From an uncultured Verrucomicrobiae bacterium (GTDB lineage: Bacteria; Verrucomicrobiota; Verrucomicrobiia; Chthoniobacterales; Chthoniobacteraceae), in assembly GCA_963769025.1 (NCBI GenBank), contig CAVYKI010000009.1, forward strand, positions 640,001 through 704,000: a stretch of DNA of 64,000 bases. Direction: 5' to 3'. The translations under genes were made by a program, and so were the position numbers. Positions 371 to 17,500 of this stretch are shown piece by piece. Under the pieces are notes generated by a model that worked only from the letters and a program-made list of their open reading frames with translations, searched no databases and was not told the DNA's origin. Within the stretch, counting starts at the first letter, position 1. Every line of letters begins with the position of its first letter.

Positions 371-2152
371 ATGAACACCCCAAAAATGAAAACAAACACA
401 CCACTGAGGACGGGCATCTGTGCCGCGCTCGTCGCTCTCATCGGAGTCGCCATGCAAGGGGTGGGCTTCGCACTCACTGTGACGAACAATCAGGACAATG
501 CACCCAGCGCGTCGCTCATCACGGGCAGCCTGCGCTGGGCCATCGTCAACACTCCGCCGAACGGGTTGGTCGACTTTTCTTCCTCCTTGAAGGGAAAGAC
601 CATCGTGCTCAAAGCCGGCCAGGTGGTGATTGACAAGGTTTTGACCATCCGGGGCCTCGGATGCGATTTCCTGACGGTCAGCGGCAACAATGTGAGCCGC
701 GTGTTTTATGTGAATGCGACCGGTCTCGCCCCGACGACCATCTCCGACATGACCGTCACCAAAGGCAATGGCACGGGGCCCGACCTCTCGGGCTTTGGCA
801 ATGCCTCCCACGGCGGCGGAATCCACAACGTGGGCAATCTTCAGCTTCTGCGCGTCTGCGTGACCGCCAACAAGTCGCCGCTTGGCAGCGGCGGCGGCAT
901 CTATAACCGAGGCACGCTCAGCGGGCTCACCGACAGCACCGTCTCCTACAATACCGCGGGCCAGAACGGCGGCGGCATCTTCGACGAGCAGGACATGACG
1001 ATCATCCGCAGTTCCATCACCAACAACTCCGCCGGCGGCGACGGTGGCGGCATCCAGGAGGCGGGCACGGCAAATCTGATCAATACGACGATCTCCTCGA
1101 ACACTGCAGCGGGCTCCGGTGGCGGGCTCAACGATCAGGGAGGAACCACGTTGAAGACCTACAACGTGACCATCACCGGCAATACTGCGGCGGTGGGTGG
1201 CGGGATGGCGAACGTGCCGTTCCTTGGCGCTTCGTGGGAGCTTCGCAACACGATCGTGGGCGGCAACAGTGCACCGAATGCGCCGGACGTGAGCAATGCA
1301 TTCGGTTCGCAAATCAGCCAGGGGAACAACCTCATCAAGGTCACCACCGGCGCCCCCTCAGGAAGTTTTGTCGCCAGCGACATCCTCGGTGCAGATCCAC
1401 GGCTCGGCCCCCTTCAGGAAAACGGGGGACCGACGCTGACTCACGCGCTCCTGCCCGGCAGCCCGGCCATCGACAAAGGCAGCAATGGCAACCTGCTCGC
1501 CAGCATGACCACGGATCAGCGGGGCTTCATGATCCGCGTCATCGACGGCGGCCTCAGCCTCACGGTGGACATCGGCGCCTACGAATACACCTCGGCAAAA
1601 GGGCTCAAGAACGAGGCAATCGCCAGTCTTACGGATTGCCTTTCCAGCACGCACTGCAAGACCCGCGTGTGGGCAGCTGCTGCGATCCTCCGCATCCAGC
1701 GCAGTCTGACGCCAGCGTTGTGGGTGACGGGGAGCGACACGACTCTCACGAGGTGTGGGGAACTCGTGTTCGATAAAGAGCAGGAGGCAGCCTATCTCAT
1801 TCAGAAGATCATCAAGTATAGCCCCGACCTGGCATGCGTGCAGTCGGCCACCTACGCGGTCCAGGATCTCGTGCTGGCGGATGAGCAGCTTGCCCGCGAG
1901 GCGATCCGCCTTGCCGTCGCCGCGAACGGCAACGCCAAAAAAATCCAGGACGCGAACAAGGAACTTGTCACCGCCCAGTCATATCTTGCCAAGCAGGACT
2001 ACAAGAAGGCCATCGAGCACTTTAAACATGCATGGGAAAAGGCGCAGGAATCGGTCGGCATCAAGCCGGACGACGACACATGCAAGGCCCTGAAGAAACA
2101 GTGGCAGAACGACGGCGACGACGATGACGACGACGAGGAGGACTGCAATTAA
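371..2152 (+). CDS. Secreted/surface beta-helix protein with choice-of-anchor Q domain, helical C-terminal domain and acidic tail
   Basis: Signal-peptide-like N-terminus (ATG at 371 or 386); repeated GGGI/N-rich PMP-like motifs; DPRLGPLQENGGPTLTHALLPGSPAIDKG...DQRG...DIGAYE choice-of-anchor Q signature; ends NDGDDDDDDEEDCN. Confidence 0.8.
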   Translation: MNTPKMKTNTPLRTGICAALVALIGVAMQGVGFALTVTNNQDNAPSASLITGSLRWAIVNTPPNGLVDFSSSLKGKTIVLKAGQVVIDKVLTIRGLGCDFLTVSGNNVSRVFYVNATGLAPTTISDMTVTKGNGTGPDLSGFGNASHGGGIHNVGNLQLLRVCVTANKSPLGSGGGIYNRGTLSGLTDSTVSYNTAGQNGGGIFDEQDMTIIRSSITNNSAGGDGGGIQEAGTANLINTTISSNTAAGSGGGLNDQGGTTLKTYNVTITGNTAAVGGGMANVPFLGASWELRNTIVGGNSAPNAPDVSNAFGSQISQGNNLIKVTTGAPSGSFVASDILGADPRLGPLQENGGPTLTHALLPGSPAIDKGSNGNLLASMTTDQRGFMIRVIDGGLSLTVDIGAYEYTSAKGLKNEAIASLTDCLSSTHCKTRVWAAAAILRIQRSLTPALWVTGSDTTLTRCGELVFDKEQEAAYLIQKIIKYSPDLACVQSATYAVQDLVLADEQLAREAIRLAVAANGNAKKIQDANKELVTAQSYLAKQDYKKAIEHFKHAWEKAQESVGIKPDDDTCKALKKQWQNDGDDDDDDEEDCN

Positions 2153-2178
2153 GAGCCATTCGATCCTTGGTTGAATTC

Positions 2179-2214
2179 AGGGCGGCCGGAGTTTTCTCCG
2201 GCCGCCCTTTTTTT
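2179..2214 (+). terminator. Rho-independent terminator
   Basis: Perfect 13-bp stem AGGGCGGCCGGAG/CTCCGGCCGCCCT with a TTTT loop and a T-run, just after the stop at 2152, between convergent genes. Confidence 0.9.
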
Positions 2215-2261
2215 GCATTTGCGTGGGGATCGCAGGGAATCGAATCGTGCACTGCACCTTC

Positions 2262-3395
2262 TCAGTCGCGCGATCTGGGTGCCGGAGGCAGCGCCACACC
2301 CATGGCTTCCAGGCTCTCGCGGATTCCTCCCAGCAGCCCCGCGAAGTCTCCCGGGGTGAGCTGACCGATCGTGCCGATGCGGAAGCTGTCGCCGTGGGAA
2401 AGCTTGCCCGGATAGATGACGAGGCCGCGCACGGCGAGCCGGTGGCAGAAGTCCTCGAAGTCAAATCGCGGGTCGGCCGGGAAGTGGAAGGCGATGATGA
2501 TCGGGCCTTGCAGTTCCCGGCGGAGGACAGGCCGGAATCCCATCCCCTCCATGCCTGACAAAAGCGTGCGCTGGCTTTCCCGGTAGCGCCTTTCCCGCGC
2601 GGCGACGCCGCCTTCGCGGGTGAGTTGATCGAGTGCCGCGGCGAGGGCGAGGCAGACATGCGTGGGGGGCGTGAATCGGAACTGGCCGCTGCTCTCGAGT
2701 TCGTCCCTCTGCGCTGGCAGATCGAGGCTCACGCTGCGGGCGTGGCCTCGCGCGGCATCGAGGGATGCGCTTCGCGCAATCGCAAAGGCAATGCCGGGGA
2801 CGCCCTCGATGCATTTGTTCGCCGAGGAGATCAGGCAGTCGATGTTCCATCTGGTGACATCCACCGGGATGCCGCCGAAACTGCTCATCGCATCCACCAG
2901 GAAGCGCCGCCCGGCTGCCGCGACGACGGCCCCGATTTCCGCGATGGGGTTGAGGATGCCGGTGGTGGTTTCGCAATGGACGGCAGCGACGTGGGTGACC
3001 TCGGGGTGTGCGGCGAGATGCACTTTTGCGGATCCCGGATCGTTCGGCTCGGTCTCCGGTGCTTCGATGCTGTCCACCGCGATGCCGAGCCGTTGCGCGA
3101 TGCCGATCATCCGGCGGCCGTACGCCCCGTTGGCGAGGACGAGGAGCTTTCCGTCCGGTGGGATGAGCGAGCCGATGGCGGCTTCGATGGCGAAGGTGCC
3201 GCTGCCTTGCATGGGCACTGCCGAGAACTCCGGGCCGGCGCCGGCGATCATCAGCAATTCCTGGCGAATGTGACGGACGATCTGGATGAAGGCCGCATCG
3301 CGCGGGCCCATGTCCCTTTGCATGGCGTCGCGCACGGCGTCGCTCGTGTTGATCGGTCCGGGCGTGAAGAGGCGCTGGCGGATGTGGTCCGTCAT
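2262..3395 (-). CDS. phnW: 2-aminoethylphosphonate aminotransferase (class V PLP; AepZ/PhnW family)
   Basis: LFTPGP, QGSGTFAIEA, VHCETTTG, DAMSSFG, SSANKCIEGVPG (PLP Lys), FRFTPPTH, IYPGKL; ATG overlaps the ppd stop (ATGA). Confidence 0.93.
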   Translation of the reverse strand: MTDHIRQRLFTPGPINTSDAVRDAMQRDMGPRDAAFIQIVRHIRQELLMIAGAGPEFSAVPMQGSGTFAIEAAIGSLIPPDGKLLVLANGAYGRRMIGIAQRLGIAVDSIEAPETEPNDPGSAKVHLAAHPEVTHVAAVHCETTTGILNPIAEIGAVVAAAGRRFLVDAMSSFGGIPVDVTRWNIDCLISSANKCIEGVPGIAFAIARSASLDAARGHARSVSLDLPAQRDELESSGQFRFTPPTHVCLALAAALDQLTREGGVAARERRYRESQRTLLSGMEGMGFRPVLRRELQGPIIIAFHFPADPRFDFEDFCHRLAVRGLVIYPGKLSHGDSFRIGTIGQLTPGDFAGLLGGIRESLEAMGVALPPAPRSRD

Positions 3396-4543
3396 TTCCG
3401 GGTGGCGAGGTATCGCATGAAGCGTTCCTTGATTGCAGGCGGCTTCACCGCGGGCCGGCCGAGTTTCTCCAGCGAGCCAGGGCGGATTTTCAAATGGAGC
3501 AGCGAGGGGCCGGCGTTCGGGCACATCTCCGCAAGACAGGCGGCGAGGTCCTCGGCACGCTCCGCGCTGAAGACGTTTCGGTAGCCCGCCGCCGCGGCGA
3601 TTCGCGCGAAATCAACCGTCGGGGAGACGGTCGCCTGCCCTCCGGTGGAATCGTGCGTTTCATTGTCGAGGATGATGTGGATCAAGCGCTCCGGCTGGTA
3701 GTGGCCGATGGTCGCAAGCGTCCCCATTTTCATGAGCGCCGCGCCGTCACCGTCGAGGATGATGACGCGCTGCCCCGGCAGTGTGTGCGCGATGCCGAGG
3801 CCAATCGCGGACGCGGTGCCCATACCTCCGACGACGTAGAGATTTCCCGGCCGGTCTGAAACGGTGAAGAGTTCGCGCCCGGTCTTGCCAGTCGTGGCCA
3901 CGATGGCGTCGTCGTCGGTGCAGAAGCGAAGGATGTGAGCGATGGCCTTACTGCGCGTGAGTCGCAAGGACGGCGAATCGAAAGGCAGAAGCCGTGCATG
4001 CGCCTTCACTGTGGCGGCTGCCGCGCGCGGCTCTAGCGCGCACGTCGCGAAGGTGTCCTTTTTCAGGATGAAGGCGAAGGGAAGCTGTCGCTCGCGCATG
4101 GAGGCATCGGCTTCGTCGAGGGCGGCATCCATTTCTCCCTGCTCCTCGGGGAACGGCAGCCACGGGATCTCCAGCGTGTCGAGCATCCGCTGCGTGATGC
4201 GGCCCATCAGTTCGTGCTGCGGCTCATCGGCGAGTCCCGGCTCGCCACGCCAGGTGGTGACGAGCAGCGTGGGGATGCGGAATGGATGGTTGAGCGACGT
4301 GAGCGGATTGATCGCGTTTCCGAGTCCCGAGTTTTGGCAAAGGGTCACCGTCTTGCGACCGGCGAGACTGGCGCCGAGGTTGATGCCGATTGCCTCGCCT
4401 TCACTCGTTGCGCCCACGTAGTCGAGTTCGCGGTCGTTGATCACAGCGTTGATCAGCGGCGTCAGGAAGGAGCAGGGGACTCCGGAAAAAAACGAGTATC
4501 CGAGAGCACGCAGCCTCGCGAGAAGCGCCCGTGCTTCGATCAT
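3392..4543 (-). CDS. aepY: Phosphonopyruvate decarboxylase (ThDP-dependent)
   Basis: FFSGVPCSFL, QNSGLGNAINPLTSL, WRGEPG.DEPQHELMG, TTGKTGREL, DGDGAALM ThDP motif, HDSTGGQ; ATGA overlap with the pepM stop. Confidence 0.93.
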   Translation of the reverse strand: MIEARALLARLRALGYSFFSGVPCSFLTPLINAVINDRELDYVGATSEGEAIGINLGASLAGRKTVTLCQNSGLGNAINPLTSLNHPFRIPTLLVTTWRGEPGLADEPQHELMGRITQRMLDTLEIPWLPFPEEQGEMDAALDEADASMRERQLPFAFILKKDTFATCALEPRAAAATVKAHARLLPFDSPSLRLTRSKAIAHILRFCTDDDAIVATTGKTGRELFTVSDRPGNLYVVGGMGTASAIGLGIAHTLPGQRVIILDGDGAALMKMGTLATIGHYQPERLIHIILDNETHDSTGGQATVSPTVDFARIAAAAGYRNVFSAERAEDLAACLAEMCPNAGPSLLHLKIRPGSLEKLGRPAVKPPAIKERFMRYLATRK

Positions 4544-5595
4544 TCCGCGCTGAGTGGGGCGAGGCTGAGCTTCGCGGGCGGACGCTTCGGCCGCGCCGAT
4601 GTTGCCAGCGCGGCTTTCTCCGCACCGTCGGCGATTTTTGCGGACTGGCCGGCGCTGTCGCCAGGAAGGTATCGCCTTTCGGCCTCGGTGAGTTCGTCGG
4701 CGTTCTGGAGGCGGAAGACTTCCTGCAAGGGAGCAATTTCCCCATCGATGCCGGTCACGGACTGTTCCTCGAAGATCTGGCGGCACGTCGCCTGCATCGC
4801 CGCGATCGAACTCCTCAGATTGTGATTTGCCCAGATGACCGTGCTGAATCCGGCTTCGGCGAAAACCGCCGCCGGCGTCCGACTGAAGGTCGTGGGCACC
4901 ACGATGAGCGGGGTGGAGCGATCCCACTCTGAGGCAAAGGCGAGGACCTCGTCTGCGTCAGTCCGCTTGCTGTGCACGAGCAGGGCATCCGCTCCGGCAT
5001 CGGCATACAGGTGCGCGCGGCGAAGAACCTCCGCAATTTCCACTCCCGCAATGAATCCCTCCAGTCGCGCGATGACGCAAAAATCCGCACGGCTTTGCGT
5101 GTCCTTAGCCGCCTTGATCTTTCCGGTGAACTCCATCGGATCCACCAGCTTCTTTTTGCCCTCGCTCAGGGAATTGCGCTTCGGAAAAATCTGGTCTTCG
5201 ATGCACACGCCGTCGATTCCGCGCTGATTGAGCTTCCGCACGAGTCGGCGGACGTTGTTGAAATTCCCAAACCCCGAGTCCCCATCGAGCAGGATCGGCA
5301 GCCGGGTGGCGTCGCGCATGAATTCCACGATTTCGAGCACCTGGGTCCAGCTCGCCTCGTTGCAATCGCGGACGCCGAGCGTGGCCGACATGGAAAGCCC
5401 GCTGGCCCAGATCCCGGCAAAGCCCGCCTCCTCGACGATCTTCGCGCTCAGCCCGTTGTGAGCTTCCATGAAGAACTCCATTTCCCCGGAATACAGCAGT
5501 TCTTTCAGCCCGCGAGGCTGGGGTGGATTGTGATTATGTTTCAAAGGATGGGGGAGGTGGAAGGCTGTCGCAATTCCCTTGCCCGCAACAATCAT
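4540..5595 (-). CDS. pepM: Phosphoenolpyruvate mutase
   Basis: MEAHNGLSAKIVEEAGFAGIWASGLSMS, DCNEASWTQV, LDGDSGFGNFNN, EDQIFPKRNS, WANHNLRS; start uncertain (ATG 5595 or TTG 5544). Confidence 0.92.
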   Translation of the reverse strand: MIVAGKGIATAFHLPHPLKHNHNPPQPRGLKELLYSGEMEFFMEAHNGLSAKIVEEAGFAGIWASGLSMSATLGVRDCNEASWTQVLEIVEFMRDATRLPILLDGDSGFGNFNNVRRLVRKLNQRGIDGVCIEDQIFPKRNSLSEGKKKLVDPMEFTGKIKAAKDTQSRADFCVIARLEGFIAGVEIAEVLRRAHLYADAGADALLVHSKRTDADEVLAFASEWDRSTPLIVVPTTFSRTPAAVFAEAGFSTVIWANHNLRSSIAAMQATCRQIFEEQSVTGIDGEIAPLQEVFRLQNADELTEAERRYLPGDSAGQSAKIADGAEKAALATSARPKRPPAKLSLAPLSAE

Positions 5596-5867
5596 GCTAG
5601 CGGAGGAAGTACTCCGTTCAAGGATGGACTGCCTTCCTGCAGCGGGTTCCATCCCTGCACGTCCGGCAAATTCGAGGTGTCCTGGCGGGCACTGCGTTTC
5701 CTTCCGGCGATGCCATTTGGGTGCAGCAAGGGCGACCGGCTGCTTGACGGCAGCGATGCGGAAAATACCGTGGCGGCCGTGAGCCGTGACGAACATCCAG
5801 CATCAAAGATCAGAGCAGTGCCGGCCCGGTCCATCCGCCAAGGAATGCGCAGCGCGGGGAATTGATC

Positions 5868-7070
5868 ATGTCGCTCTTTTCTTGGCTTGGCATCGGAAAA
5901 GCCAGTCCCGCTCCTTCTGAGCAATCACGGGCTGACCTGACCGGAACTGCAGACCTCCCATCCGTCTTTTGCGATCCGGCCTCGAATAACGCGCGGGACG
6001 CGTTGGACCTCGGAAAAATCCGCATCGTCGAAGATCCCACAGTCGCGGATCTCCTTTGGATGCGGAAGGGGTATCGGGACTGGTTCGGAAAACTCCGGCC
6101 GTTTCAGCTCTTGAATCATTTTCCAAACGAGCGCGCGATGACCGACAAGGGATTCCTCGCAGAGCACCTCGGCAGGTTTTCCAGGAACCAGTCGAAGTAT
6201 GACTTCGGCATGACGGATCTCGTCCAGGAGACCTACTGCCTCTACATTCCGGAAGAGAGGGAGCGTTTCTTCAGCCAGCTTCCGGCTTCTGAATCGAAGG
6301 AGAATCTTTGGATACTCAAGCCCTGCTCCTCGTCCCGCGGCAGGGGCATCCAAATCCTCTGGCAGTTTGATGAGTTGCGCGATGCGTATGCGCATCCCGA
6401 AGAATTCGCATTCGATCCGCAGAAGGACCGCTACGTCATCCAAAGATACATCCGGAACCCGCTGCTGCTCGACGGGCGCAAGTCCGAAATCCGGATCTAC
6501 TGGCTCGTCGCCTCCCTCGATCCGCTCCTCGTCCTCATGTATCGCGAAGGAACGGTGCGGCTGAATACGCAGCCATTCAGCCTCGATGATTTTGAAAATA
6601 CGCTGATCCACGTGACCAATGTGTTTCAGCAAAAGGCCCATCCGGACTACGATCCGTCGGCTGTCTTGAAATGGAGTTTTTCGGATTGGGAAAACTACCT
6701 CATCCAGGATCGGAAGCTCGCGCCGGAGAACTGGGTCGAGGGACACCTGAAGCCGCAGCTCAAGCGCATGCTGTCCTTCGTGGTGGACGCCGCGCGGCCC
6801 ACGCTCTCGCAAGATCTCGGCAACGGACTCCCCTTCGGCCTGTTCGGGGCCGACATCATTTTCGATGACACACTGCATCCCTGGCTCACGGAGGTTCAGA
6901 AGGGACCGGGGCTCAGCTTCGACGACCCGATCAAGCAGAAGGTGATTCCAGCCATGCTGAACGAGGGGATCGCCATCATGCTCGAAGTACGACGCCGCAA
7001 ACGCGACGGCCTCGGATTGGCGCAGCTGGATGCCGTCCAAGGATTCGAGTGGGTGATCCGTGAGACGTGA
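5868..7070 (+). CDS. Tubulin-tyrosine ligase (TTL/TTLL) family ATP-grasp amino acid ligase
   Basis: LNHFP, WILKPCSSSRGRGI, YVIQRYIRNPLLLDGRKSEIRIYWLV, YREGTVR, HVTN, FGLFGADIIFDDTLHPWLTEVQKGP; these follow the ordered TTL-family motifs WIxKP...GxGI, QxYIxxPLLxxGRKFDxRxY, HLTN, FxxxGxDxxxD...PWLxEVN. Confidence 0.85.
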   Translation: MSLFSWLGIGKASPAPSEQSRADLTGTADLPSVFCDPASNNARDALDLGKIRIVEDPTVADLLWMRKGYRDWFGKLRPFQLLNHFPNERAMTDKGFLAEHLGRFSRNQSKYDFGMTDLVQETYCLYIPEERERFFSQLPASESKENLWILKPCSSSRGRGIQILWQFDELRDAYAHPEEFAFDPQKDRYVIQRYIRNPLLLDGRKSEIRIYWLVASLDPLLVLMYREGTVRLNTQPFSLDDFENTLIHVTNVFQQKAHPDYDPSAVLKWSFSDWENYLIQDRKLAPENWVEGHLKPQLKRMLSFVVDAARPTLSQDLGNGLPFGLFGADIIFDDTLHPWLTEVQKGPGLSFDDPIKQKVIPAMLNEGIAIMLEVRRRKRDGLGLAQLDAVQGFEWVIRET

Positions 7071-7223
7071 GGCGCGGCAGAGCTGCTTCGAGCGGCTGCC
7101 GACGATGCTGAGGAACACCAGCAGCACCACCAGCCCGCCGCCTGCGTGCCGAACATCCTTGGGTGGCTTGGCTCACGCAGAGCGTGGCTGCGGTTCCTTC
7201 ACCGGCGGGCGAAAAGCGCGGCC

Positions 7224-8183
7224 CTATTTCGAAAGGATGAATTTGTGAAGATGCCCGAACGCGCTCCACTCCGCGACGATGAGATTGCCGTCCTTGTCGA
7301 TGGATGCGCCGTGCGGTGAGTTCGTGATGCCGTCCTTCCACTGGTCTTCCTTCAGCCCGAAGTTTGCACGTTGTGCCGCCACGGGATTGTCTCCGACCTG
7401 CGCGACGATCGCGCCAGTCTTGTCGAGCACCGTCACGCGTCCCTGCAGCTCGGGGACCACGGCGTAGTCGCCGCGGATGTGGACCGCGGCGGGCAGGCGG
7501 AGATCGGCCTGGATGACCTTCACGAAATTGCCGTCGAGATCCCAGTGCTCGACGCGGTTGTTATTGCGATTGCAGACGAAGAGCAGCGGCTTTTCCCCGC
7601 GCGTGTCGAGGGCGATGCCGTGGCACGTCTTGAAGAATCCGACGGAAGGGCCGGGCGCGCCGAATGCCTTCACGAATTTGCGATCCTTGTCGAATTTGAA
7701 GATGTGGTTGGAACCGTATCCGTCGGCCACGAAGATGGAGCCATCGGGGCCCACCGTGACGGCACAGGGGTTGAAGCCGTTCGCATCTTTGCACACTCCG
7801 GATTCCTCGGGGTATTTGAGGGACCACTCCTGCGTCCCGTCGAGCTTGAGCTTGATGACTTCATGCGCCGAAGGACGCGCGCCGTAGATCACCTCCGTGC
7901 CGTTTTCCTCGCGAATTTCGAGGCCGTGGATTTTTGCCGGGCCAAAGGCGCGGACAAATTTGCCAGCGGGAGAGAAAACGAGGATGCCGCGCGGTGTGTC
8001 GGTGGTGACGTAGATGTTGCCCGCCTTGTCGATCACCGCGCCGCCGTGGCACGCGCCGATTGGCTGGCCGCCGGGCGTCTTTTCGAAGAAGTCCGGTGCG
8101 ATGGAAAATTTCTGCTCCGCCGCGATGGCGTGGCCGGACAGGAGGGCGATGATTCCGAGGAGGGAGTGGGTAAGGCGTTTCAT
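7224..8183 (-). CDS. Secreted NHL-repeat (PAL-like) six-bladed beta-propeller protein
   Basis: Signal peptide; repeats such as IFVADGYG, HGIALD, CNRNNNRV, PHGASIDKDGNLIVAEW. Confidence 0.8.
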   Translation of the reverse strand: MKRLTHSLLGIIALLSGHAIAAEQKFSIAPDFFEKTPGGQPIGACHGGAVIDKAGNIYVTTDTPRGILVFSPAGKFVRAFGPAKIHGLEIREENGTEVIYGARPSAHEVIKLKLDGTQEWSLKYPEESGVCKDANGFNPCAVTVGPDGSIFVADGYGSNHIFKFDKDRKFVKAFGAPGPSVGFFKTCHGIALDTRGEKPLLFVCNRNNNRVEHWDLDGNFVKVIQADLRLPAAVHIRGDYAVVPELQGRVTVLDKTGAIVAQVGDNPVAAQRANFGLKEDQWKDGITNSPHGASIDKDGNLIVAEWSAFGHLHKFILSK

Positions 8184-8302
8184 TGGGGACGCGCTTTTTC
8201 GGCGACGCGATCCAGTTTGGCAATCCGCGAGATGCCGCAGCCGGCGGCCGCCGGGTGCAAAGAATTTGTGTCGGCAACTCCGGACCGGTAGCGTCGGCGG
8301 CC

Positions 8303-9016
8303 ATGAAACTCCCCCTCATTTCCGCAGCCGTGACCTTCGCCGCGATCGCGGCCACCTCCGCCGAGACGCCGGTGCCCGCGAACTGGGCGCAGTCGGTCAA
8401 ATTTCCAGCATCAGAAAAGGCGGCGGCGCTTTTCAACGGCAAGGACCTCTCGGGCTGGAAGGGCAACGAAAAATATTGGTCCGTGCAGGACGGCGCGATC
8501 GTCGGCAAGAACACCGACGCCAACGCGCCCAAGGCGAGCACCTATCTCGTGAGCGACAAAAAGTACCGCGCATTCCGCTTGGTCTTCGAGGGCAAGCTGG
8601 TGACGAGCGAGATGCACAGCGGCGTGGCGATGTGGGGAACCCCGGTCGAGAGGGAAGGGGACCCGCTGAGCTACATGGGGCACCTGGTAATGTTCCCGTC
8701 CGGCTGGGGATTCTACGATCTCTACCGGCGCAACAGCATCCACAAGGACGACGGCACCGCGAAGAAAGCAGGGCGCCAGCACGAGTGGAACCAAATGGAA
8801 ATCCTCGCGCAGCCGCCGCGGATCCGCTTCGCGGTGAATGGCCAGCTCGTCGCGGACTGGACGGACCCGAAGCCGGAACTTTGCGGTGAAGGTCCGCTCG
8901 GCCTGCAACTGCACTCCAACAAGGTGCCGCAGGAGGTTCAATTCCGCGGGCTGATCCTTTCGGAGAACCCGGAGGACCGGATGGCGACGGTGACTGAAGC
9001 GCCCTCGGCGAAGTAG
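8303..9016 (+). CDS. DUF1080 / 3-keto-disaccharide hydrolase family secreted protein
   Basis: Signal peptide; LFNGKDLSGWKG..WSVQDGAIVG, EWNQMEI, GPLGLQLH, VQFR. Confidence 0.85.
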   Translation: MKLPLISAAVTFAAIAATSAETPVPANWAQSVKFPASEKAAALFNGKDLSGWKGNEKYWSVQDGAIVGKNTDANAPKASTYLVSDKKYRAFRLVFEGKLVTSEMHSGVAMWGTPVEREGDPLSYMGHLVMFPSGWGFYDLYRRNSIHKDDGTAKKAGRQHEWNQMEILAQPPRIRFAVNGQLVADWTDPKPELCGEGPLGLQLHSNKVPQEVQFRGLILSENPEDRMATVTEAPSAK

Positions 9017-9049
9017 CGGCCGCGCCTCGCGGCGGCTCGCAAATGCGAA

Positions 9050-10915
9050 TCACTCGCGGGCCGGGCTCAGTCTCACGATTTTCTTCCCCGGCATCGCGCT
9101 TTTCACGAGCTCGGGGATCTGCTCGATGGCTTCGAAATCGTATTTCTGGATGGCGGGATCGAGTTTGTCCCACGGGACAAGGTAAGGCGAAGTCCGGTTC
9201 GCCTTGTCTTGCGTTTTCCCGTGACGCCAGCCGGCCAGCCATCGCTCCGCGTTCCATCGCTGGTGTTCCACCGGGGCGAGCGCCTTGATGTCGTTTTCAT
9301 CGAGGGCTTCGATCGCTTCGCCCGCATGGTCGTCCGCCACAAGCTCGCAACCGATGGCGCGGAGCTTCACGCGAAGATGGTCGGCCTGCTGGCGGTTGGA
9401 CTCGCGGATGTCATCCCGGAGGTCATCCCAGTCGCGGAGCGTGGGATCATTCTCCGGCGTGCGCTGCGAAGTCGCGGCGCGCCGTCCGACGAACCGCCGG
9501 TGAATTGCGCGTGCGAGTTCATCCAGCTCGTCGCCTCGAAATGCGCCGTCCGAGCACGTGTCGTCCACGGTGCCGAAGGGCACAATCCGCACCTTGTCGC
9601 CTTCCGCGGCTTCGAGGATGCGCGCCACTGAATCCTTCGAGCGGATGCGCACGTGGATCCCGCAGGATTTGCACTCGCGCAGGACATCCTGGAGGCGGAG
9701 GGCCACCTCGAGGCTGCGGCCATCGTCGTCGAGGCCGAAGTAGATATGCAGCAGTGCGGCGGGTTCGGCCGCCCAGCCCTCGATAAGCTTGCGCGCCTGC
9801 TGCGACTCGGCCTCCACCGCGTGAAATTGGATGTCGCAAATGTCGCGGCCGGCGAGAATCGGATAGCGGAACAGGAGGCGGTCGCGCTGCGTGCCGGCGT
9901 GGCGGTCGATCACCGAAATGCGGAGCGGCTTTCCATTTGCGAACTGCCCCATCTTTGCCGCGCGTAACGCGAGGCTGCGTCCCATCCTCCCGAAGCCGAG
10001 AATCACCACATGGACCGAGCGCGGATCGAGCGGTCCGATGCCCTTGCCGTCGAGCGGGTGATCGCGCAGCACGCGGCGCGCTTCGCTGTCATAGACGTCG
10101 AAGAAGTGCAGCCGGCTTGCCGCATCGTTTCTCTCCTGATCGATCCACCGGTCCACCGCCTCACGCAGATGAATGTCGGAGAGGTGGACGTGACGGCGCG
10201 GACGTCGCCCCGATATCCCCGCATTCAGGCACGCCTCACGGATTCCGGCCGCGATCCGCACATTGGTCGGATCCGAAGGCGTGATGACGATGATTTCCTC
10301 GGCCTTCGTGATCCGTGCCTCCGCGAGCACCTCCGGTTTCGAAGCATCGCCCAGAATCACGCACGCACCCGCCGCCTCGCAGGCATCGGTGAATGAAGCC
10401 TCCGGGTTGGGATCGATGATCACGACACGCTTTGGCGGGGGCACACGTTCGCCGTCCAAGCGCTTCAGGAAACGGCTTGCTGCCTCCACGATCCGCTTCC
10501 CGCCACGCACCTTGCCCCCGTCCATCAGATCCATCGCGATGGCGAATCCCTTCTGCCCCAGGCCGCACACGACGTAGTGATCCTCCCACCGCTTTAGCAA
10601 AAGCCGTCGCCATTCGCGCTTCAGCCGCCTCCCGATCAGGATCGCGCCCGCGCAGAACGCCGTCGCCACCCCGGCCCAGCGGCCCACTTCGAGCCACGCA
10701 TTTGCCCCGTGCTCGAAATGCGCCGTGTGCAGGATCAGCATCTGGATGCCGTGATACAGCGCTCCCAGAAAATGGACCTCCCCGTGGTGGCCGTGTTCGA
10801 GTTCGTAGCGCAGCACGCCCACTGCCCCTGCGACGACCGTCAGCACACCAAACAGGACGAGAAACCACCACTGCCTGCGCGGGATTCGGAGGTAATCGGA
10901 GGCGCCGTGGCTCAT
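9050..10915 (-). CDS. Membrane protein: 2TM (channel-like) + two RCK/TrkA-N domains + C-terminal RyR repeats
   Basis: Two hydrophobic helices flanking LGALYHGIQML; Rossmann motifs VVCGLGQKG and VILGFGRMG; RyR-type LARAIH...WDDL...RESNRQQA and EHQRWNAERWLAGW...LVPWDKL...KYD. Confidence 0.8.
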   Translation of the reverse strand: MSHGASDYLRIPRRQWWFLVLFGVLTVVAGAVGVLRYELEHGHHGEVHFLGALYHGIQMLILHTAHFEHGANAWLEVGRWAGVATAFCAGAILIGRRLKREWRRLLLKRWEDHYVVCGLGQKGFAIAMDLMDGGKVRGGKRIVEAASRFLKRLDGERVPPPKRVVIIDPNPEASFTDACEAAGACVILGDASKPEVLAEARITKAEEIIVITPSDPTNVRIAAGIREACLNAGISGRRPRRHVHLSDIHLREAVDRWIDQERNDAASRLHFFDVYDSEARRVLRDHPLDGKGIGPLDPRSVHVVILGFGRMGRSLALRAAKMGQFANGKPLRISVIDRHAGTQRDRLLFRYPILAGRDICDIQFHAVEAESQQARKLIEGWAAEPAALLHIYFGLDDDGRSLEVALRLQDVLRECKSCGIHVRIRSKDSVARILEAAEGDKVRIVPFGTVDDTCSDGAFRGDELDELARAIHRRFVGRRAATSQRTPENDPTLRDWDDLRDDIRESNRQQADHLRVKLRAIGCELVADDHAGEAIEALDENDIKALAPVEHQRWNAERWLAGWRHGKTQDKANRTSPYLVPWDKLDPAIQKYDFEAIEQIPELVKSAMPGKKIVRLSPARE

Positions 10916-10928
10916 GGTCGTTTGCGAT

Positions 10929-11228
10929 TCATTTTCGAGGCGGCACAATTTCGTAGCCGAGCGAAAGGATCGCCTTCAGCGTGCCGAGCGCGGTGATGCG
11001 GTCATATTCCTTCTCCGAATCCGGCAGCTCCGCGTACGGCACCAGGCACGGGTGCTTTTTCGCCGCATCGTCGCGACTCGGGCCAAAGGTCCACCCATCC
11101 GCCATCCGCTGCGCAGCCCAGCTATCGTGCGCGTTCTCCGCGAGCCGCTCGGTCAGCGCCATCATCTCTGGCGGCAGAAGCACGCCGGAGGCATCGATGG
11201 CCTTCGGGTGGTACGTGGAATCGCTCAT
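10929..11228 (-). CDS. Stand-alone RyR (ryanodine receptor repeat) domain protein
   Basis: YHPKAID...LTERLAENAHDSWAAQRMADGWTFGPSRDDAAKKHPCLVPYAELPDSEKEYDR...LKAILSLGYEI, the canonical RyR repeat pattern. Confidence 0.9.
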   Translation of the reverse strand: MSDSTYHPKAIDASGVLLPPEMMALTERLAENAHDSWAAQRMADGWTFGPSRDDAAKKHPCLVPYAELPDSEKEYDRITALGTLKAILSLGYEIVPPRK

Positions 11229-11288
11229 GAGCGCAGGTTGCCCCGGCAGCGGGATCACCCGCAAGCCTGCGATTGCCCGGGGCCTCGC

Positions 11289-13925
11289 TCATGCCAGTGC
11301 GCCTCCGAATTTCCTTTTCACGATCGCCCTCGCTTCCTCCAGTCCGCGTCCCGCCGGGAGGGCGTAGTAGATGGAGATGTAGGTGTGGTCGCGGGCGGTG
11401 TGGGCGGTGAGGGCGTAGATGTTTCCCTCCAAGTAGCGGAAGACTTTGTAGGTCAGCGCATAGATGAGGCCGCCGGAATCATGGGTGGTCTCGAAGCGAA
11501 GGCAGTGCAGGCCGGGCCGGGATTCGCTGAGCGTGATGCGGCCCTCGATGGGCGGCAGCGAGGCTTCGTCGGCGTCGGCGATGTGGCGTCGGTTGCGGAT
11601 GGCTTCCTCGACGATCGCGGAGAGGTCCTTCCGGAGGGGCAGGGCGCCGGGGGCGAGGTGGAAAAAGTCGAGGGCGAGGCCATGGTTCATCGCTGAGAAA
11701 AGGTGCGCCTGCCGGAGTTCGACCTGGCTTTGCCACAGCGCGCCGCTGATGGATGCGGCCAGCCCGCGGTAGTCCCGGGTGGCGACGCCGACGATGGTCG
11801 AGGTTCCATCGCGGATGATCGCCGCCTTTGGCCCGGCGGTGTCGTCGTCACCGGCGAGGCGGACGAGATGCGCGCCAAAGCGGATCGCATGGAGGCGGTA
11901 GGCGCCGCTGAAGAAATCCTCGCCGATGTCGCGCAGGATGGCGAGTTCATCCTCGCCGTAACCCGCTGCGGCGAGGGAGCCGGAGCGATCCTGTCGCGGA
12001 CGGAAGGTCGCCACGGCCTTTGAGTAAAGCTCACGGATATTCCACCAGCGCACCGGCTCGGCCTGCGCGGATTCCCACTGGGCGCGGTCGGCGCACGTGA
12101 ACACGAAGAGCGCCCGCAACCGCTGCTCATCTCCGCAGCGCCGCGCAAACTCCGCGACCTGCTCCCCGTCGTTGAGGCCGCTTTCGGCGAGTACCTTGAA
12201 AGCGCGCCGGTTTTCCACGAGGAAGCGCGCGACATCCACGGTGACCTGCGGGAACTCGCACTCGGGTGCGTAAGGCGTGAAGTAGTCCGCGAGCGGGATG
12301 CCGGAAACTCCCGAGGCGTGGCGTTCGTGGAGCGGGAGCGTCTCGTCGGTGCGGGCGGCTTCGTCCTCGGGCGTGAGCGGGAGCCGCTTGGTCTTCAGCG
12401 CGAGCTTCACCGCGGCGCGATGATCCGCGTCGAGCAGCGCGGCCTGAATCGCGGGCGCGACGCCTTCCTCGGTGGCGCTGATTTTTTCCGGGGAGACCGC
12501 GGTGGTGAGCCGCTCCGCGCCCTCGGCCACGTAGCGCTCCAGCGCGCGCATCTTTTGCCGCTCCAGCGCGCCGCGCAGGGAATGGCGTTCCCACATCACG
12601 CGGCCGTCGAGCGAGGATTCGAATTTCCCGTAGCCGGGAAAGAGACGGGCCTCGGCACCGTCGATCTGGGAGAGGAACTCGAAGGAATCCGCGAGGCTTC
12701 CGCGGGGCTCATAAAAGAGCGCGGAAACCTCCGGCACGCGCACGAGCCAGTCGCCGGCATTGTGAAAGGTCGCGTGGAGTTCGGCGGGGTCGATCGGCAC
12801 GCCGTAGCGCTGCGAGTCCAGCAGCAGCGAAAGCGCCGCGCGGCTCTTGTCTCGCGCGGTCTCGCAGAAGCCGGAGGTCGCATGCCGCAGGCCGGCAGTG
12901 CCGTAGATCATGGGACTCCCCGGCGACACCGCACGCCCGTGCCTCAGTTCCCGCCCGATCACCGCCCTTGAAAACACCGCCACACGGCGTCGCGCTGCGA
13001 GCAGTCGCGCGCGGACCTCGTCGGCAAATTCAAACCGCGCGCCTTCGTCGCTCCCGGGCCCGAGCATCTCTCCATATGAGACTGAATCCTCGAACCCGAG
13101 CATGTCCTCGGGGTGATTGCCAAAGGCGTCCGGCCTGCCTCCTGGCGGACGGCGCAGGTGCACCCACGCGCGGATGCGCAGCAGGAAATCATACGCCGCC
13201 AGGTCGCGCGGGTCCTCGAGTTCGCGATAGATCTCGTGGCTGTGGACGAATGTTTTCCCGGCAAGCGTCCAGATGCCGCCGAGGAAAACGCGAAGTCCGT
13301 CGTTCTTGATGTCGAAGCGATCCAGCCGCTCGCTTCCCGCGCCCGCGGCCTCCCACTGCTCCTTCCAAAAACCACGCAGGTGCAGGAAATGCCCGAAGGG
13401 ATCGCAGGACTCGCGGATGCGTTCACGGAAGCGCCCGGAAAGCCCGCACGGGTCGTACACCGCACGCATGTCGAGGAAGGAATTGAGCGGCTTGTCCACG
13501 AGCGCTGGCGCGTCATCGAGGCCGAACGGAAGCGCTTCGCAGCGAAAGCCGTGCTGTTCGCGGAATTCGTCCGTGTGCAACGTCTGCCGCTGGAGCTCCA
13601 GCAGGAAGGCATTGCCCTCGATCGCGTCGTCGAAGAGGAACGCGAAATCCAGATCGGAGCACGGCGTGACCTCGCCGCGGCCGGTCCCGCCGAGCGCCAC
13701 GACGGCGAAGGGCTTTGCGTAGCCGAGCGCGCCCTGTTGCGCCTCGGCCCATTGCCCGACGAGCGCCGTGAAAATTGCCGTCCGCGCATTGGCGATCGCG
13801 CGGCCATTCCCCAGATCGGCGCTCCGGATCCGGGCGTCATTTTCCGCGATGAGCCGACGGTGCGCCTCCAGCGGCCCGCACTCGCGGGCCACCTCCAGCA
13901 CTCGGGCTTCGTCTTGGGCGATCAT
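11289..13925 (-). CDS. glnD: Divergent GlnD-like nucleotidyltransferase (NTase - helical - degenerate HD - 2xACT)
   Basis: VALGGTGRGEVTPCSDLDF (Pol-beta NTase motif), DIKNDGLR, AYDFLLRIRAWVH, LFVFTCAD...W..RELY, ACT-like TRDYRGLAASISG...ALDFF and HDSGGLIY; 878 aa, about GlnD length; HD residues not found. Confidence 0.75.
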   Translation of the reverse strand: MIAQDEARVLEVARECGPLEAHRRLIAENDARIRSADLGNGRAIANARTAIFTALVGQWAEAQQGALGYAKPFAVVALGGTGRGEVTPCSDLDFAFLFDDAIEGNAFLLELQRQTLHTDEFREQHGFRCEALPFGLDDAPALVDKPLNSFLDMRAVYDPCGLSGRFRERIRESCDPFGHFLHLRGFWKEQWEAAGAGSERLDRFDIKNDGLRVFLGGIWTLAGKTFVHSHEIYRELEDPRDLAAYDFLLRIRAWVHLRRPPGGRPDAFGNHPEDMLGFEDSVSYGEMLGPGSDEGARFEFADEVRARLLAARRRVAVFSRAVIGRELRHGRAVSPGSPMIYGTAGLRHATSGFCETARDKSRAALSLLLDSQRYGVPIDPAELHATFHNAGDWLVRVPEVSALFYEPRGSLADSFEFLSQIDGAEARLFPGYGKFESSLDGRVMWERHSLRGALERQKMRALERYVAEGAERLTTAVSPEKISATEEGVAPAIQAALLDADHRAAVKLALKTKRLPLTPEDEAARTDETLPLHERHASGVSGIPLADYFTPYAPECEFPQVTVDVARFLVENRRAFKVLAESGLNDGEQVAEFARRCGDEQRLRALFVFTCADRAQWESAQAEPVRWWNIRELYSKAVATFRPRQDRSGSLAAAGYGEDELAILRDIGEDFFSGAYRLHAIRFGAHLVRLAGDDDTAGPKAAIIRDGTSTIVGVATRDYRGLAASISGALWQSQVELRQAHLFSAMNHGLALDFFHLAPGALPLRKDLSAIVEEAIRNRRHIADADEASLPPIEGRITLSESRPGLHCLRFETTHDSGGLIYALTYKVFRYLEGNIYALTAHTARDHTYISIYYALPAGRGLEEARAIVKRKFGGALA

Positions 13926-14515
13926 GCGGAAAATCTGCCAGCAAAGCCGGCGATGTCACTTCAGCAATGAATGCCGCGTGCCGGACCGAGGACCGGAGAG
14001 TGTGAGGCGTCGCACCGAGCCGCGGGCCGCGCTTTCCCGGTCAGGCGTTCCGACTTCTTCCGGCTTGAGCAGGGACGGCAATTTTGCGCACCACCACTCC
14101 CTGACGGAGGGAATACGCAAGCCGTTCAGGACCGTTCGATGCGCTCGGCCGCGTCCGGGCGCGCAGTTCGCACAACTCGGGGACGTTTGCGAGTTCACGT
14201 TCGACAAGAAGGACATCGCGGTGAGGGCCGACAAGATGCCGATGTTCGCGCCTACACGCTAATGCCGAAGGATCAACTTCCGTTGTCTTGGTACCTGAAC
14301 CCTGAGGGTGAGGCACCGAAAAAATTGCCATAGAACATCTGAAGCAGTGCCCTTCAATTCCATATGACATACATTGTTCGATGTTATATGTATACACATC
14401 GATCGCTGATGGTTTCATTGCTGTGAACAACTTGCGAAGAACTACGACGCGTTCACTCCATGCGTTCCCGAAGCCTGATATGCACCCTGCGGCAACGCCT
14501 CCTTGCACCTCTTCC

Positions 14516-17500
14516 CTACTCAAGAAGGCCTCGGATCTCCTCCATACTCAGTGCTTCCATGAGGGACTGCTCGCCCTCCAGTGTCGCCGCAATTACGGCG
14601 CGCTTTTTTGCCTGAAGATTGATGATCCCTTCCTCGATTGTACCTCTCGAAATGAGTTTGTAGCTTGTGACGATCCGCTTTTGGCCGATCCGGTGGGCAC
14701 GGTCGGTCGCCTGAGCCTCAACGGACGGATTCCACCATGGGTCGAAATGAATCACGGTATCCGCAGCGGTCAGATTAAGGCCTGTTCCGCCCGCTCGGAG
14801 GCTTATGAGAAAAACCGGGACGTCACCCGCTTGGAATCGGGCGACCTCGGCGCCCCGATCCCGCGTTTGCCCGTCCAGGTAGCAGTGTCTCACACCGAGA
14901 TTGTCGAGTCGGCTGCGGATAAAGCTCAGCATGCTGACAAACTGACTGAAAATGAGCACCCTATGCCCGCCATCCAAGGCTTCCGAAAGCAATTCCTCCA
15001 GAAGCTCGAGCTTTGCGGAGGCATCGGAATCGCTTGGTTGCTGCTCAATGCCGAGTAGGCGGATATCACAGGCAGCCTGCCGCAGGCGCAGCAATGCGGT
15101 TAACATCAACATCCGAGCCTTGTTTCGATCCGTGTATCCAGACAATTCGGAAAGTTGAGACCGCGCCGCATTTGCGAGCTGATTGTAAACATCAGATTGT
15201 GCCGCAGTCATTGTGCAATACGCGATTTGCTCTAGTTTTTCCGGTATCTCCGTTGCTACTGATTCCTTCGTCCGCCTAAGAAGAAATGGCCGGATTCGGC
15301 GGGTGAGGCGTTTCTGTTCTGGTCCGTCGGAACCGCTTTGAATCGCCTTTTCGTACCCTTCACGGAAATCAGCGCGCGTGCCAAGGTATCCAGGCATCAG
15401 GAAATTCATCAGTGACCAGATGTCGCGCACTGAATTTTCCACTGGCGTGCCGGTGAGGACAAATCGGTGCGCTGCGTTGAGCGCCGAGGCTGACTGGGCG
15501 TTCTGGCTGTCGGGATTCTTGATATGCTGGGCCTCATCGAGGATAACGGCGCCGAATTGTTGGCTCCGGTAGTTTTCCGCATCCCTTCTGAGCAACGGAT
15601 AACTCGTAATTACCAGATCAGATCTCTCGATTTTATGGAAATCCTCCGCTCGATGCGCTCCCTCGAGCGTTAGAACCCGGAGTTCGGGTGTCCATTTCGA
15701 GGATTCGGCGCGCCAGTTGAAAATCAGCGACGAAGGACAGACGACGAGGCTTGGGCCCTGCCCTCGCAGCGTGCGGATGAAAGCGAGCGCCTGAAGCGTT
15801 TTTCCAAGACCCATTTCGTCGGCCAGGATGCCGCCGAAGCCGTTTTGCGCGAGGAAGTGCAGCCAATAGACGCCGTGTTTCTGATAGTCGCGCAGCACGG
15901 TATCCAGTGAACCAAGCGGGACCGGCATGAGACGTTCGAGATTCCGAGCGGCGCAGGCCCAGTCGCGCCAGCGTGTTTCGCCGGCGACGGGAAGTCCATT
16001 CTCCGTTGCGAACGCATCGAGCGCGCCCGCCTCTCTGCGATCGAGTCGGTAAACGCCGGCCTGGCTTTGCTGAGGATTGCTCTCGCGCAGGAGGCGTTCA
16101 AATTCATCGAGCAGCCCGGGATCGAAGACCGCAAGCTTGCCGTTTTTGCGCCGCACGTGACTCTGGCCACCTTGCAGCAACCGTGCGATGTCTGCGCCCG
16201 AAAAACGTTCGCCTCCTGTAGCGGCCAGCTCGTACGAAAGGTCGAACCACTGCTCGCCGGACGATCGGATTTCCAGCCGCGGTTTGATGCGCTCGACCTC
16301 GCGTGTGACATGCTGAAACCGCTCGCCGATCTCGACTTTCCAGTCGCGCTCCAGTCGCGGCAGCACGGACGCGAAGAACGCGAGGATTCGCTGTTCACCC
16401 TTGAGTGTGAGTTCCCCTTTTCCATCCGGGCCGGAAAAACCGCACGCCCGCAGTCGCTCCAGCGCCGACTGCTCGGCTGCACGGTTGCGCGCAAACCGCG
16501 CGAGGGCCGCGCCGGTGCCATCGAGCGTCACGCGGCGATCGCCATAAACTGCTTCAACCCGCGCAGTGAGAAAATTCAGCGAGCCTTCGACTCGCGCCGC
16601 AAATCGGGGCACCGGAAGTTCGGCGGGCGCGCCGGGCGCGACATCGCCCTCGATCTCGAAGAAGTTTGCGAGTGTCGCGAGTTCGCGTTCGATGAATGCA
16701 TCCGCGGCACCCGCGGGAATGCTGATTGGACGCTCGAAGACCGTGAAATACGCAGCCGGCAGCCCCGGAGCGACAGCGATGAACGTCCCGCGATCGCGCA
16801 GCCACACGGCATTCCCGGCGATCAAAAGCGCGCCATCGGCGGGCACGTGCGCCACTCGGAGGCCGCCATCTTCCATGCGCTCGATGCGCAGGGTGTCACG
16901 ATTCCCCTGCCCTTCGATTTTCACCGGCTGCGTCTTTCCAAAAGTGACCCGAGGATTCCCGGCCAGCGCGCCGAGCAACTCCGCAAATTGTGCCTGCGTC
17001 AGCATTACCATCGCCGGCAGCTTTCCATCGGCAAAAGCACGCAGCCGAGCGACCAACCGCATATCGGCTTCGCTCGCGCGGTAGCGTTTCGTCGCATCGA
17101 GCGCGCCGAGCGGTTTGCGTTGCCCGGCCGTCTCGACCTCGAATACCACCATCACGGATTTCTTGTCCCACGCCGCGGTGAAATTCGGTGGCAGTATCAC
17201 GTGCAGCATCGCCTCCGGACCCTCCGCATCCGGCGCAAAATTCGGGTCACCGGCAGGCCCCGCCGGCATGCTTGTCGCGCCAATTTTTTCCGTGGCTGGC
17301 GCCGGAACCTCGTCCTTCTTCAGCCCCCGAATCACCGCCACCCCGACCGCCAGCGAATGCGCGCACACGAGCCCGCGCCGCCGGCTCGCCGGACACGGGC
17401 AGGTGTTCTCCATGTTCGTGCGCGACACCACGCGCAGCCCTGCGCGGAAATTCCCCTCCGCACCGCGCACGAGGCCCGCGAGCACGGGCGGTTCATAGGC

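Follow-up and report, generated by a model that had tools for sequence, protein, structure and literature searches.

In two 2026 preprints, the phage proteins with a ryanodine receptor (RyR) domain are anti-Thoeris sponges or glycosidases. The mycobacteriophage protein RyDEP (Pfam PF02026) is a dimeric glycosidase of 2'/3' cyclic ADP-ribose (2'/3'cADPR), with the residues H75, W78, H100 and D117, and of eight other phage RyDEP homologues tested, six bind 2'/3'cADPR signals and none cleaves them (Lopez Rivera et al., PMC13232231). The phage sponge RyR Tad (gp68) binds 1''-3' gcADPR with a dissociation constant of 43 nM, its residues being H129/W132, K147/H154 and K170/D171 (10.64898/2026.06.04.730250). 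Thoeris itself has been extended by the validated types V–XI, among them type X, in which a TIR gene accompanies a 'predicted ion channel' (ThsK) whose signal is given there as unknown; RyR, TrkA, RCK and PF02026 go unmentioned in that text (Yirmiya et al., 10.64898/2025.12.03.692087). Literature searches for RyR together with Thoeris, SLOG, effector-associated domains or alarmone synthetases turned up no title or abstract on host RyR-domain effectors, and Kaur et al. 2021 (PMC8195603) names ryanodine in its reference list only. Here we describe a host locus that carries two RyR-domain genes. It lies in a 64,000-nucleotide (nt) stretch of DNA from an uncultured Verrucomicrobiae bacterium (assembly GCA_963769025.1, contig CAVYKI010000009.1, positions 640,001 to 704,000; hereafter the window), where a gene for a small RyR protein precedes a gene for a channel-like protein with RCK domains and a RyR tail, and a gene for a GlnD-like nucleotidyltransferase (NTase) stands next to them.

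An initial annotation had proposed that all three genes form one signalling system. With a rough probability of 0.55, we instead read the locus as two unrelated units side by side: a stand-alone NTase, and a portable RyR cassette that would serve as a TIR-linked, nucleotide-gated effector with a buffer of its own.

The three genes follow one another on the minus strand in the order NTase, small RyR protein, transmembrane (TM)-RCK-RyR protein, with spacers of 60 and 13 nt, as read from the listing of open reading frames (ORFs), their translations and the sequence. The initial annotation had described a co-directional minus-strand trio with gaps of about 60 and 13 nt and these domains, and the ORFs, the sequence and Pfam searches agree with that description. 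The features of the locus, with protein lengths in amino acids (aa), are as follows.

11289..13925, minus strand: NTase, a divergent GlnD-family paralogue, most likely a stand-alone accessory gene, 878 aa
13617..13802, minus strand: NTase catalytic core, residues 42–103, motifs GGTGRGE and SDLD (the sole part matched by TIGR01693, DUF294 and GlnE)
11229..11288, no strand: spacer of 60 nt from the NTase stop to the small RyR start codon (sequence)
10929..11228, minus strand: small single-repeat RyR (Repeat12-type) protein, 99 aa (Pfam RyR, 113.6 bits)
10916..10928: spacer of 13 nt between the small RyR gene and the channel gene (sequence)
9050..10915, minus strand: channel-like 2TM protein, 621 aa, bearing two RCK domains and, at its C-terminal end, a Repeat12-type module
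10595..10879, minus strand: membrane part of the channel, with TM1 (residues 13–41), a pore-helix-like helix (49–62), the loop HTAHFEHGAN (63–72) and TM2 (73–107), from the secondary structure of the AlphaFold2 (AF2) model
10061..10576, minus strand: RCK domain 1, residues 114–285, GxGxxG motif CGLGQKG
9575..10018, minus strand: RCK domain 2, residues 300–447, GxGxxG motif GFGRMG (AF2 model)
9095..9529, minus strand: two-repeat Repeat12-like module, residues 463–607, a degenerate repeat 1 followed by a Pfam-detectable RyR repeat

The ORF of the small RyR gene extends over 10929–11264, with a probable ATG at 11228 and the stop at 10929. That of the channel gene covers 9050–10948, and the ATG at 10915 yields the 621-aa form that is also found as protein-database entry P0123.

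Against a Pfam PF02026 gathering threshold of 27.4 bits, the RyR domain scored 113.6 bits in the small protein and 45.1 bits in the channel, and these two are the only RyR matches in the genome. Compared with the sequences of the PDB, the small RyR protein matched repeat 1 of RyR2 (76 bits) and the 'putative ryanodine receptor' of B. thetaiotaomicron, 3nrt (108 bits). Residues H34, W37, H59 and D76 are invariant in four orthologues, and the spacing of these ligand residues (+3, +25, +42) equals that of H75/W78/H100/D117 in RyDEP and of H129/W132/H154/D171 in RyR Tad, a correspondence drawn from spacing and the shared Pfam domain and not from a direct alignment. Relatives of the small RyR protein were detected in 258 phage records. 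By analogy, the protein is a candidate sponge or glycosidase for a nucleotide signal. The phage proteins resemble the protein of the window in being small PF02026 proteins with an equally spaced H/W/H/D set, and their 2'/3'cADPR pockets are dimeric. They differ from it in being phage-encoded and directed against defence, whereas the small RyR gene here belongs to the chromosome and keeps a fixed place before a host channel gene.

In the channel protein, Pfam detected a TrkA_N domain (57.1 bits) in addition to the RyR domain. An AF2 model built with 29 sequences (pLDDT 87.5, pTM 0.82) contains TM1, a pore-helix-like helix, TM2, two Rossmann-type RCK domains and a helical C-terminal module. A Foldseek search with this model placed GsuK first (E 8e-9) and TrkA rings next, with MthK also matched. 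The alignments to full-length MthK and GsuK begin at residues 10–16 of the model, and the two-RCK gating rings of TrkA, GsuK, CASTOR and DMI1 align over residues 111–460 or beyond. The last ~187 residues align to the whole Repeat12 domain of human RyR3 (E 4.7e-6, TMt 0.56), and on the strength of the model the channel appears to carry a complete two-repeat Repeat12 module in cis. Repeat 1 of this module is degenerate yet strongly conserved, with H472, W496, H513 and R519 invariant; in repeat 2, H551, W554 and D593 are conserved. The GxGxxG motif is retained in both RCK domains, G307 of domain 2 being invariant and G309 nearly so, and in the membrane part Y54 and H63 are nearly invariant.

TVGYG is the selectivity filter motif of K+ channels. 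No filter of the TVGYG type was found in the channel translation. The filter loop reads HTAHFEHGAN (residues 63–72), the family consensus being LHTPHxE, and given this non-canonical loop K+ selectivity of the channel is not to be assumed. The channel thus shares with the K+ channels GsuK and MthK a 2TM pore domain followed by RCK domains, and differs from GsuK, MthK and TrkA (PDB 4gx0, 4gx5, 6oly, 4j9v) in its C-terminal Repeat12 module and in having HTAHFEHGAN in place of a TVGYG-type filter. In animals, Repeat12 (PDB 9l9b, 9l91, 6uhe) belongs to a Ca2+ release channel of ~5000 residues, whereas here it sits on a small RCK channel, with its repeat 1 degenerate, or stands alone. Structures of RyR3 Repeat12 contain ADP or AMP-PCP, by their PDB entry titles.

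Conservation of the RyR pair and its TIR neighbours

In at least six genomes of two phyla, that of the window included, the small RyR gene directly precedes the channel gene, in the same orientation and 13–20 nt away. In locus L057, from a genome of the same genus as the window (G413), the two proteins are 72% and 56% identical to those of the window. The pair recurs in L065 (79%) and in a Bacteroidota locus, L133 (47%), and the same arrangement is present in genomes G428 and G429. Apart from the RyR pair, the products of L057 and L065 share nothing with those of the window or of the whole genome around it (G000). We conclude that the conserved unit is the pair of small RyR and channel genes, a real two-gene cassette of a TIR-associated channel family.

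This channel family is large and spread across many phyla: at least 501 relatives were confirmed from a pattern scan, of which 80 were kept. Within lineages its distribution is sporadic, with matches in 10/301 genomes of the phylum sample and 14/151 genomes of the window's family. Gene neighbourhoods were sampled within about 6 kb in 71 loci with a called channel gene. Our own TIR hidden Markov model (HMM) detected 25 TIR ORFs in 22 of the 71 loci, and Pfam TIR_2 confirmed 23 of these ORFs, in 20 loci; of the remaining two, one was masked by WD40 rows and the other is a 75-aa fragment. The TIR gene is the immediate neighbour of the channel gene in 11 loci, sharing its strand in seven at gaps of 0–165 nt, and in G333, a genome of the window's own family, it overlaps the start of the channel gene.

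The background is far lower. The same genome as the window has three TIR matches in 5.34 Mb, the NTase loci described below have one in 193 kb, and five genomes with a TIR-adjacent channel have 19 TIR_2 matches in 31.8 Mb; TIR density near the channel gene is ~50 times the genome background. In two genomes of 6.6 and 5.7 Mb (G453 and G454, with loci L123 and L133), the sole TIR_2 match found is the gene beside the channel. Fusions are also on record in precomputed Pfam annotation, namely TrkA_N + RyR + TIR_2 + AAA_16 (P0185) and RelA_SpoT + TrkA_N (P0169). A search for fused channel forms longer than 1106 aa found none, which is weak evidence. For the TIR proteins that adjoin channels, PADLOC returned generic TIR matches and no others.

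These arrangements invite comparison with Thoeris, in particular with type X (ThsK) and with the type II and type V membrane effectors. Two-gene sets of TIR and effector occur among the channel relatives, and the putative effector joins a membrane part to a type of ligand pocket known to take TIR products. The window differs in that no TIR gene adjoins the cassette and that the sensor would be Repeat12/RyR rather than SLOG or Macro. Further differences are the many partner TIRs that are STAND, WD40 or TPR fusions and the extra small RyR gene. Type X ThsK was compared with the channel by its description only.

The fullest operon was seen in L133, just downstream of two Mutator-family transposase genes, and consists of genes for the small RyR protein, the channel, a TIR protein, a 406-aa protein and a TrkA_N protein. 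Further RyR-tailed proteins are encoded in 16/71 channel loci: AAA-RyR proteins of ~900 aa (L062, L063, L087, L081 and others), RelA_SpoT-(TPR)-SLOG-RyR proteins (L127, L080, L070 and L129), which unite two known nucleotide-pocket domains, and a phosphatase-RyR protein (L087:7619-8659). As a further idea, RyR might act as a homotypic adaptor by which such RyR-tailed proteins are joined.

The nucleotidyltransferase gene

The NTase contains the G-x-G-R-x-E and D-x-D motifs of the Pol-beta-type NTase core (GGTGRGE and SDLD), and G79, G80, G82, R83, E85, S90, D91 and D93 are invariant across 29 relatives. In the window protein, this core is all that Pfam detected: the DUF294 match (23.7 bits) is confined to residues 54–103, and the NCBIfam glnD model TIGR01693 scored 51.3 bits against a cut-off of 519.4, its match being limited to residues 42–101; seven further GlnD models gave 15–34 bits against cut-offs of 631–1299. 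Over 29 family members, Pfam detected DUF294 and GlnE in all (29/29 each), GlnD_UR_UTase in 3/29 and ACT in 1/29 (E 0.089), and the uridylyl-removing HD domain PF01966 in 0/29 at E<=1.

When the NTase family profile was aligned with the canonical GlnD of the same genome by hhalign, the two were collinear over 635 columns with a modest probability of 76.9% (E 2.1e-5). The alignment stops at query column 774 of 893, short of the C-terminal end, and the LHDTGK motif of the canonical GlnD has no His-Asp counterpart in the NTase family. The language-model neighbours of the NTase are GlnD clusters, and the family profile had no match among PDB sequences. The protein therefore resembles GlnD in its length class, its NTase motifs and its collinear profile. 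It differs from GlnD, as defined by TIGR01693, in lacking a Pfam-detectable HD domain and in the rarity of ACT and GlnD_UR_UTase matches in its family, as well as in its patchy, off-taxonomy distribution and in the presence of a true glnD elsewhere in the genome. Of the label 'GlnD-like' given in the initial annotation, the NTase core and the collinear profile stand; the label holds only loosely, because the TIGR01693 score is a tenth of the cut-off. The annotation '[protein-PII] uridylyltransferase' carried by some relatives of the NTase is unjustified.

The presence of a canonical glnD elsewhere in the genome, which had been named as a point to check, was confirmed at G000:C9:918302-920878 (597.8 bits against the cut-off of 519.4). 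The window, C9:640001-704000 in the same coordinates, had been said to contain no PII gene, and a genome-wide PII search (amtB was not part of it) agreed, with matches at C9:1284562, C10:11249 and C3:758238-758439. These results are consistent with the window NTase being a GlnD paralogue in a genome that has its canonical glnD and PII elsewhere. The match at G000:C3:758238-758439, on the minus strand, consists of two abutting partial PII matches (profile positions 1–32 and 32–64), and their different open frames point to a PII-like gene that is frameshifted or split.

The NTase family has 442 detectable members. A member is present in 12/151 genomes of the window's family and, among the 301 of the phylum sample, in that of the window alone. 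Sequence identities do not follow taxonomy: copies in the same genus are 54–68% identical, and those in other genera up to 77%. Most likely, the NTase is a stand-alone, patchily distributed GlnD-family paralogue with an intact core, and its placement beside the RyR genes is fortuitous. Around NTase genes, we searched 27 loci, of which 21 are non-redundant (220,550 bases; several are short). All-against-all clustering revealed no recurrent neighbour. Likewise, Pfam searches of 58 neighbour proteins from 19 loci found sulfatases, binding proteins, AMP-binding enzymes, UvrC, IlvD and others, with no recurrent partner. In L014, from genome G413, the NTase is flanked by TIR_2 (9386-10315, plus strand), NPHP3-type TPR (1078-3909, plus strand) and WD40 (11129-14620, minus strand) proteins, an island of immune type. 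In L106, an NTase fragment is followed by an FtsA/PilM-like gene, with a PcfJ-like gene close by.

Mode of action and competing readings

In the model that we propose, the large protein would be a tetrameric channel scaffold of the GsuK/MthK type with two RCK domains and Repeat12 in cis. The Repeat12 pocket (H551/W554/D593), perhaps together with the RCK sites, would bind an adenine-containing signal, most likely an ADP-ribose derivative made by a TIR protein, for example a cADPR isomer. Ligand binding may then shift the gating ring and open the pore, with a loss of membrane potential and an outcome of the abortive-infection type. By analogy with RyDEP and RyR Tad, the small RyR protein might act as a homodimer, sequestering or hydrolysing this signal, and could thus be a threshold-setter or an off-switch encoded alongside the effector.

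With no TIR gene adjoining the cassette here, the signal would need a source in trans, for instance three TIR proteins encoded elsewhere in the genome. All three lie outside the window: a TIR-WD40-Roc protein, an LRR-Roc-COR-TIR protein and a 395-aa TIR protein (TIR_2 matches at C9:1245539, C9:1351188 and C6:318724, plus a match below the cut-off at C9:1126187). RelA_SpoT (PF04607) had no match in this genome, which is 83% complete; the control was positive in 11/14 reference genomes. The cassette of the window is most likely an orphan form of a Thoeris-like effector with its buffer. A more specific proposal is that it is a portable effector of TIR immunity, in which a cADPR-type signal at the Repeat12 pocket opens a channel that is accompanied by its own sponge or glycosidase, the signal reaching it here in trans from the TIR-WD40-Roc or the LRR-Roc-COR-TIR protein; its boldest version would draw the nucleotide from the neighbouring NTase. 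To this proposal we give somewhat less than an even chance.

In animal physiology, it is a long-standing question whether ryanodine receptors are a direct target of cyclic ADP-ribose. A small, soluble-domain-rich bacterial channel with the same Repeat12 pocket, found beside TIR genes in relatives, would offer a tractable system for studying how a ligand is coupled to the gate. If the proposal is true, TIR signalling gains a new sensor domain (Repeat12) and a new type of effector (an RCK channel), and hosts, like phages, encode small RyR proteins, in this case as a built-in buffer. The initial annotation had likened the locus to immune-type nucleotide signalling. That likeness is upheld for the RyR and RCK-RyR part as a sensing membrane module, by the TIR association of the family and by the binding of cADPR isomers to phage RyR domains; for the link to the NTase it is not supported.

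Several observations weigh against our reading. Repeat 2 of the channel has Ser576 where the phage proteins have a phosphate-binding His, and the residue correspondence between the small RyR protein and those of phages is, as said above, an indirect one. No PADLOC model matched the three window proteins or two related channels, and no gene for TIR, RelA_SpoT or another signal generator adjoins the cassette in the window. Neither a TIR gene nor a second RyR gene was found within about 6 kb in 42/71 channel loci, so that an ordinary metabolite may be what the channel senses. Among the TIR partners, many are STAND, WD40 or TPR fusions, a type that Yirmiya et al. (10.64898/2025.12.03.692087) set aside as probable NAD-depleting effectors and not signal makers, so that the adjacency could reflect co-location in defence islands. 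As to the separation of the two units, L106 contains an N-terminal NTase fragment of 147 aa (9282-9725, minus strand), 62.5% identical to residues 5–116, which is separated by 1.6 kb from a distantly related RCK-RyR gene (5983-7743, plus strand, 34% identity) in convergent orientation, and the NTase of L014 is followed, 764 nt downstream, by a TIR_2 gene. To judge by these two loci, the NTase may at times come to lie in variable islands like those of the channel genes, which does not amount to a system, and it may not be wholly unrelated to such islands.

Alternatively, the three genes could form the single operon of the initial annotation, whose NTase would nucleotidylate the small RyR protein or make a nucleotide signal and so control the channel. 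Their co-directional order, the gaps of 60 and 13 nt, the lack of a terminator-like site between them and the intact NTase motifs fit that proposal. So do the L106 fragment, the patchy distribution of the NTase, itself an accessory gene with identities off taxonomy, and the canonical glnD, which leaves the window copy free for another role. The neighbourhoods of relatives point the other way. Searches of the 27 NTase loci by tblastn with the two RyR proteins and by a RyR HMM found no RyR gene, thus 0 in the 21 non-redundant loci, with two matches in the window as control; that the NTase is never beside RyR genes in relatives is an outcome that the initial annotation had itself named as speaking against its trio. 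Nor was a full-length NTase found in any of 83 channel loci. Among the 151 family genomes, 12 have the NTase, 14 have a RyR or RCK-RyR match and three, including that of the window, have both, against an expectation of ~1.1; in each of the other two (G413 and G349) the NTase and RyR genes are on separate contigs. The small RyR gene travels with the channel gene and not with the NTase. We therefore leave the three-gene system only a very slim chance.

With the NTase set apart, two further explanations concern the cassette. It might encode a housekeeping or metabolic cation channel tuned by ATP, ADP or NAD, with the small RyR protein as accessory subunit or nucleotide buffer and the TIR neighbours as products of co-location in variable islands. 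PDB entry titles list GsuK structures with ADP or NAD, and TrkA and RyR3 Repeat12 structures with ATP analogues; this explanation would also account for the GxGxxG motifs kept in both RCK domains, the 42 loci without TIR or extra RyR gene and the absence of a TIR gene from the window. It fits poorly with the sporadic distribution of the channel (10/301 and 14/151 genomes), the ~50-fold enrichment of TIR genes, the two genomes whose sole TIR_2 match found adjoins the channel, the TIR fusions and the filter loop unlike that of K+ channels. We consider it unlikely, though a reading to be taken seriously. The small RyR gene might otherwise be an anti-defence gene of the Tad/RyDEP type, which rides with the channel gene on a mobile element and is not the channel's regulator. 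The relatives in 258 phage records, the anti-Thoeris activities of phage RyR-domain proteins and the two Mutator-family transposases flanking L133 are in keeping with such an origin. Against it stands the fixed place of the gene, which precedes the channel gene by 13–20 nt in the same orientation in no fewer than six genomes of two phyla, and no phage genes were seen around the small RyR gene in the window; the chance of this explanation is slim. On balance, we prefer the reading of a stand-alone NTase beside a portable RyR cassette.

Flanking genes and other features of the window

Two flanking genes lie outside the module.

8183..9016, plus strand: 3-keto-disaccharide hydrolase, convergent with the channel gene (Pfam PF06439, 98 bits)
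14516..17200, minus strand: SNF2-family helicase, upstream of the NTase gene (Pfam SNF2-rel_dom, Helicase_C and SNF2_assoc)

The initial annotation had placed a convergent gene on one side of the trio and an atypical low-GC stretch on the other, and both were found: the hydrolase gene ends at 9016, and positions 14000–15999 have a GC content of 0.55–0.58, against 0.64–0.69 in the trio. The low-GC stretch is composed of a 590-nt spacer and the 3' half of the SNF2 helicase gene. Within that gene, the 3' half (14516-16000) has a GC content of 0.55–0.58 against 0.63–0.67 in its own 5' half, and its neighbours are higher too. The SNF2 helicase is a core gene of the genus, present in 29/30 genomes at 63–79% identity (best match per full-length copy). 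Downstream of it, no synteny with the window was found in six genomes of the same genus.

On the minus strand, no promoter-like or terminator-like sites were found in 8900–14700, and Rfam had no matches in 8500–15000. A repeat search gave just short matches of a chance-like kind.

Farther from the locus, genes for a PEP phosphomutase (199.6 bits), a TPP-dependent enzyme and a class-V aminotransferase follow one another at 2262–5796 on the minus strand, a row that looks like a phosphonate biosynthesis cluster of the 2-aminoethylphosphonate type. At 5862–7070 on the plus strand lies a gene for an ATP-grasp protein of the tubulin-tyrosine-ligase family (TTL; 166 bits), which is unusual for bacteria.

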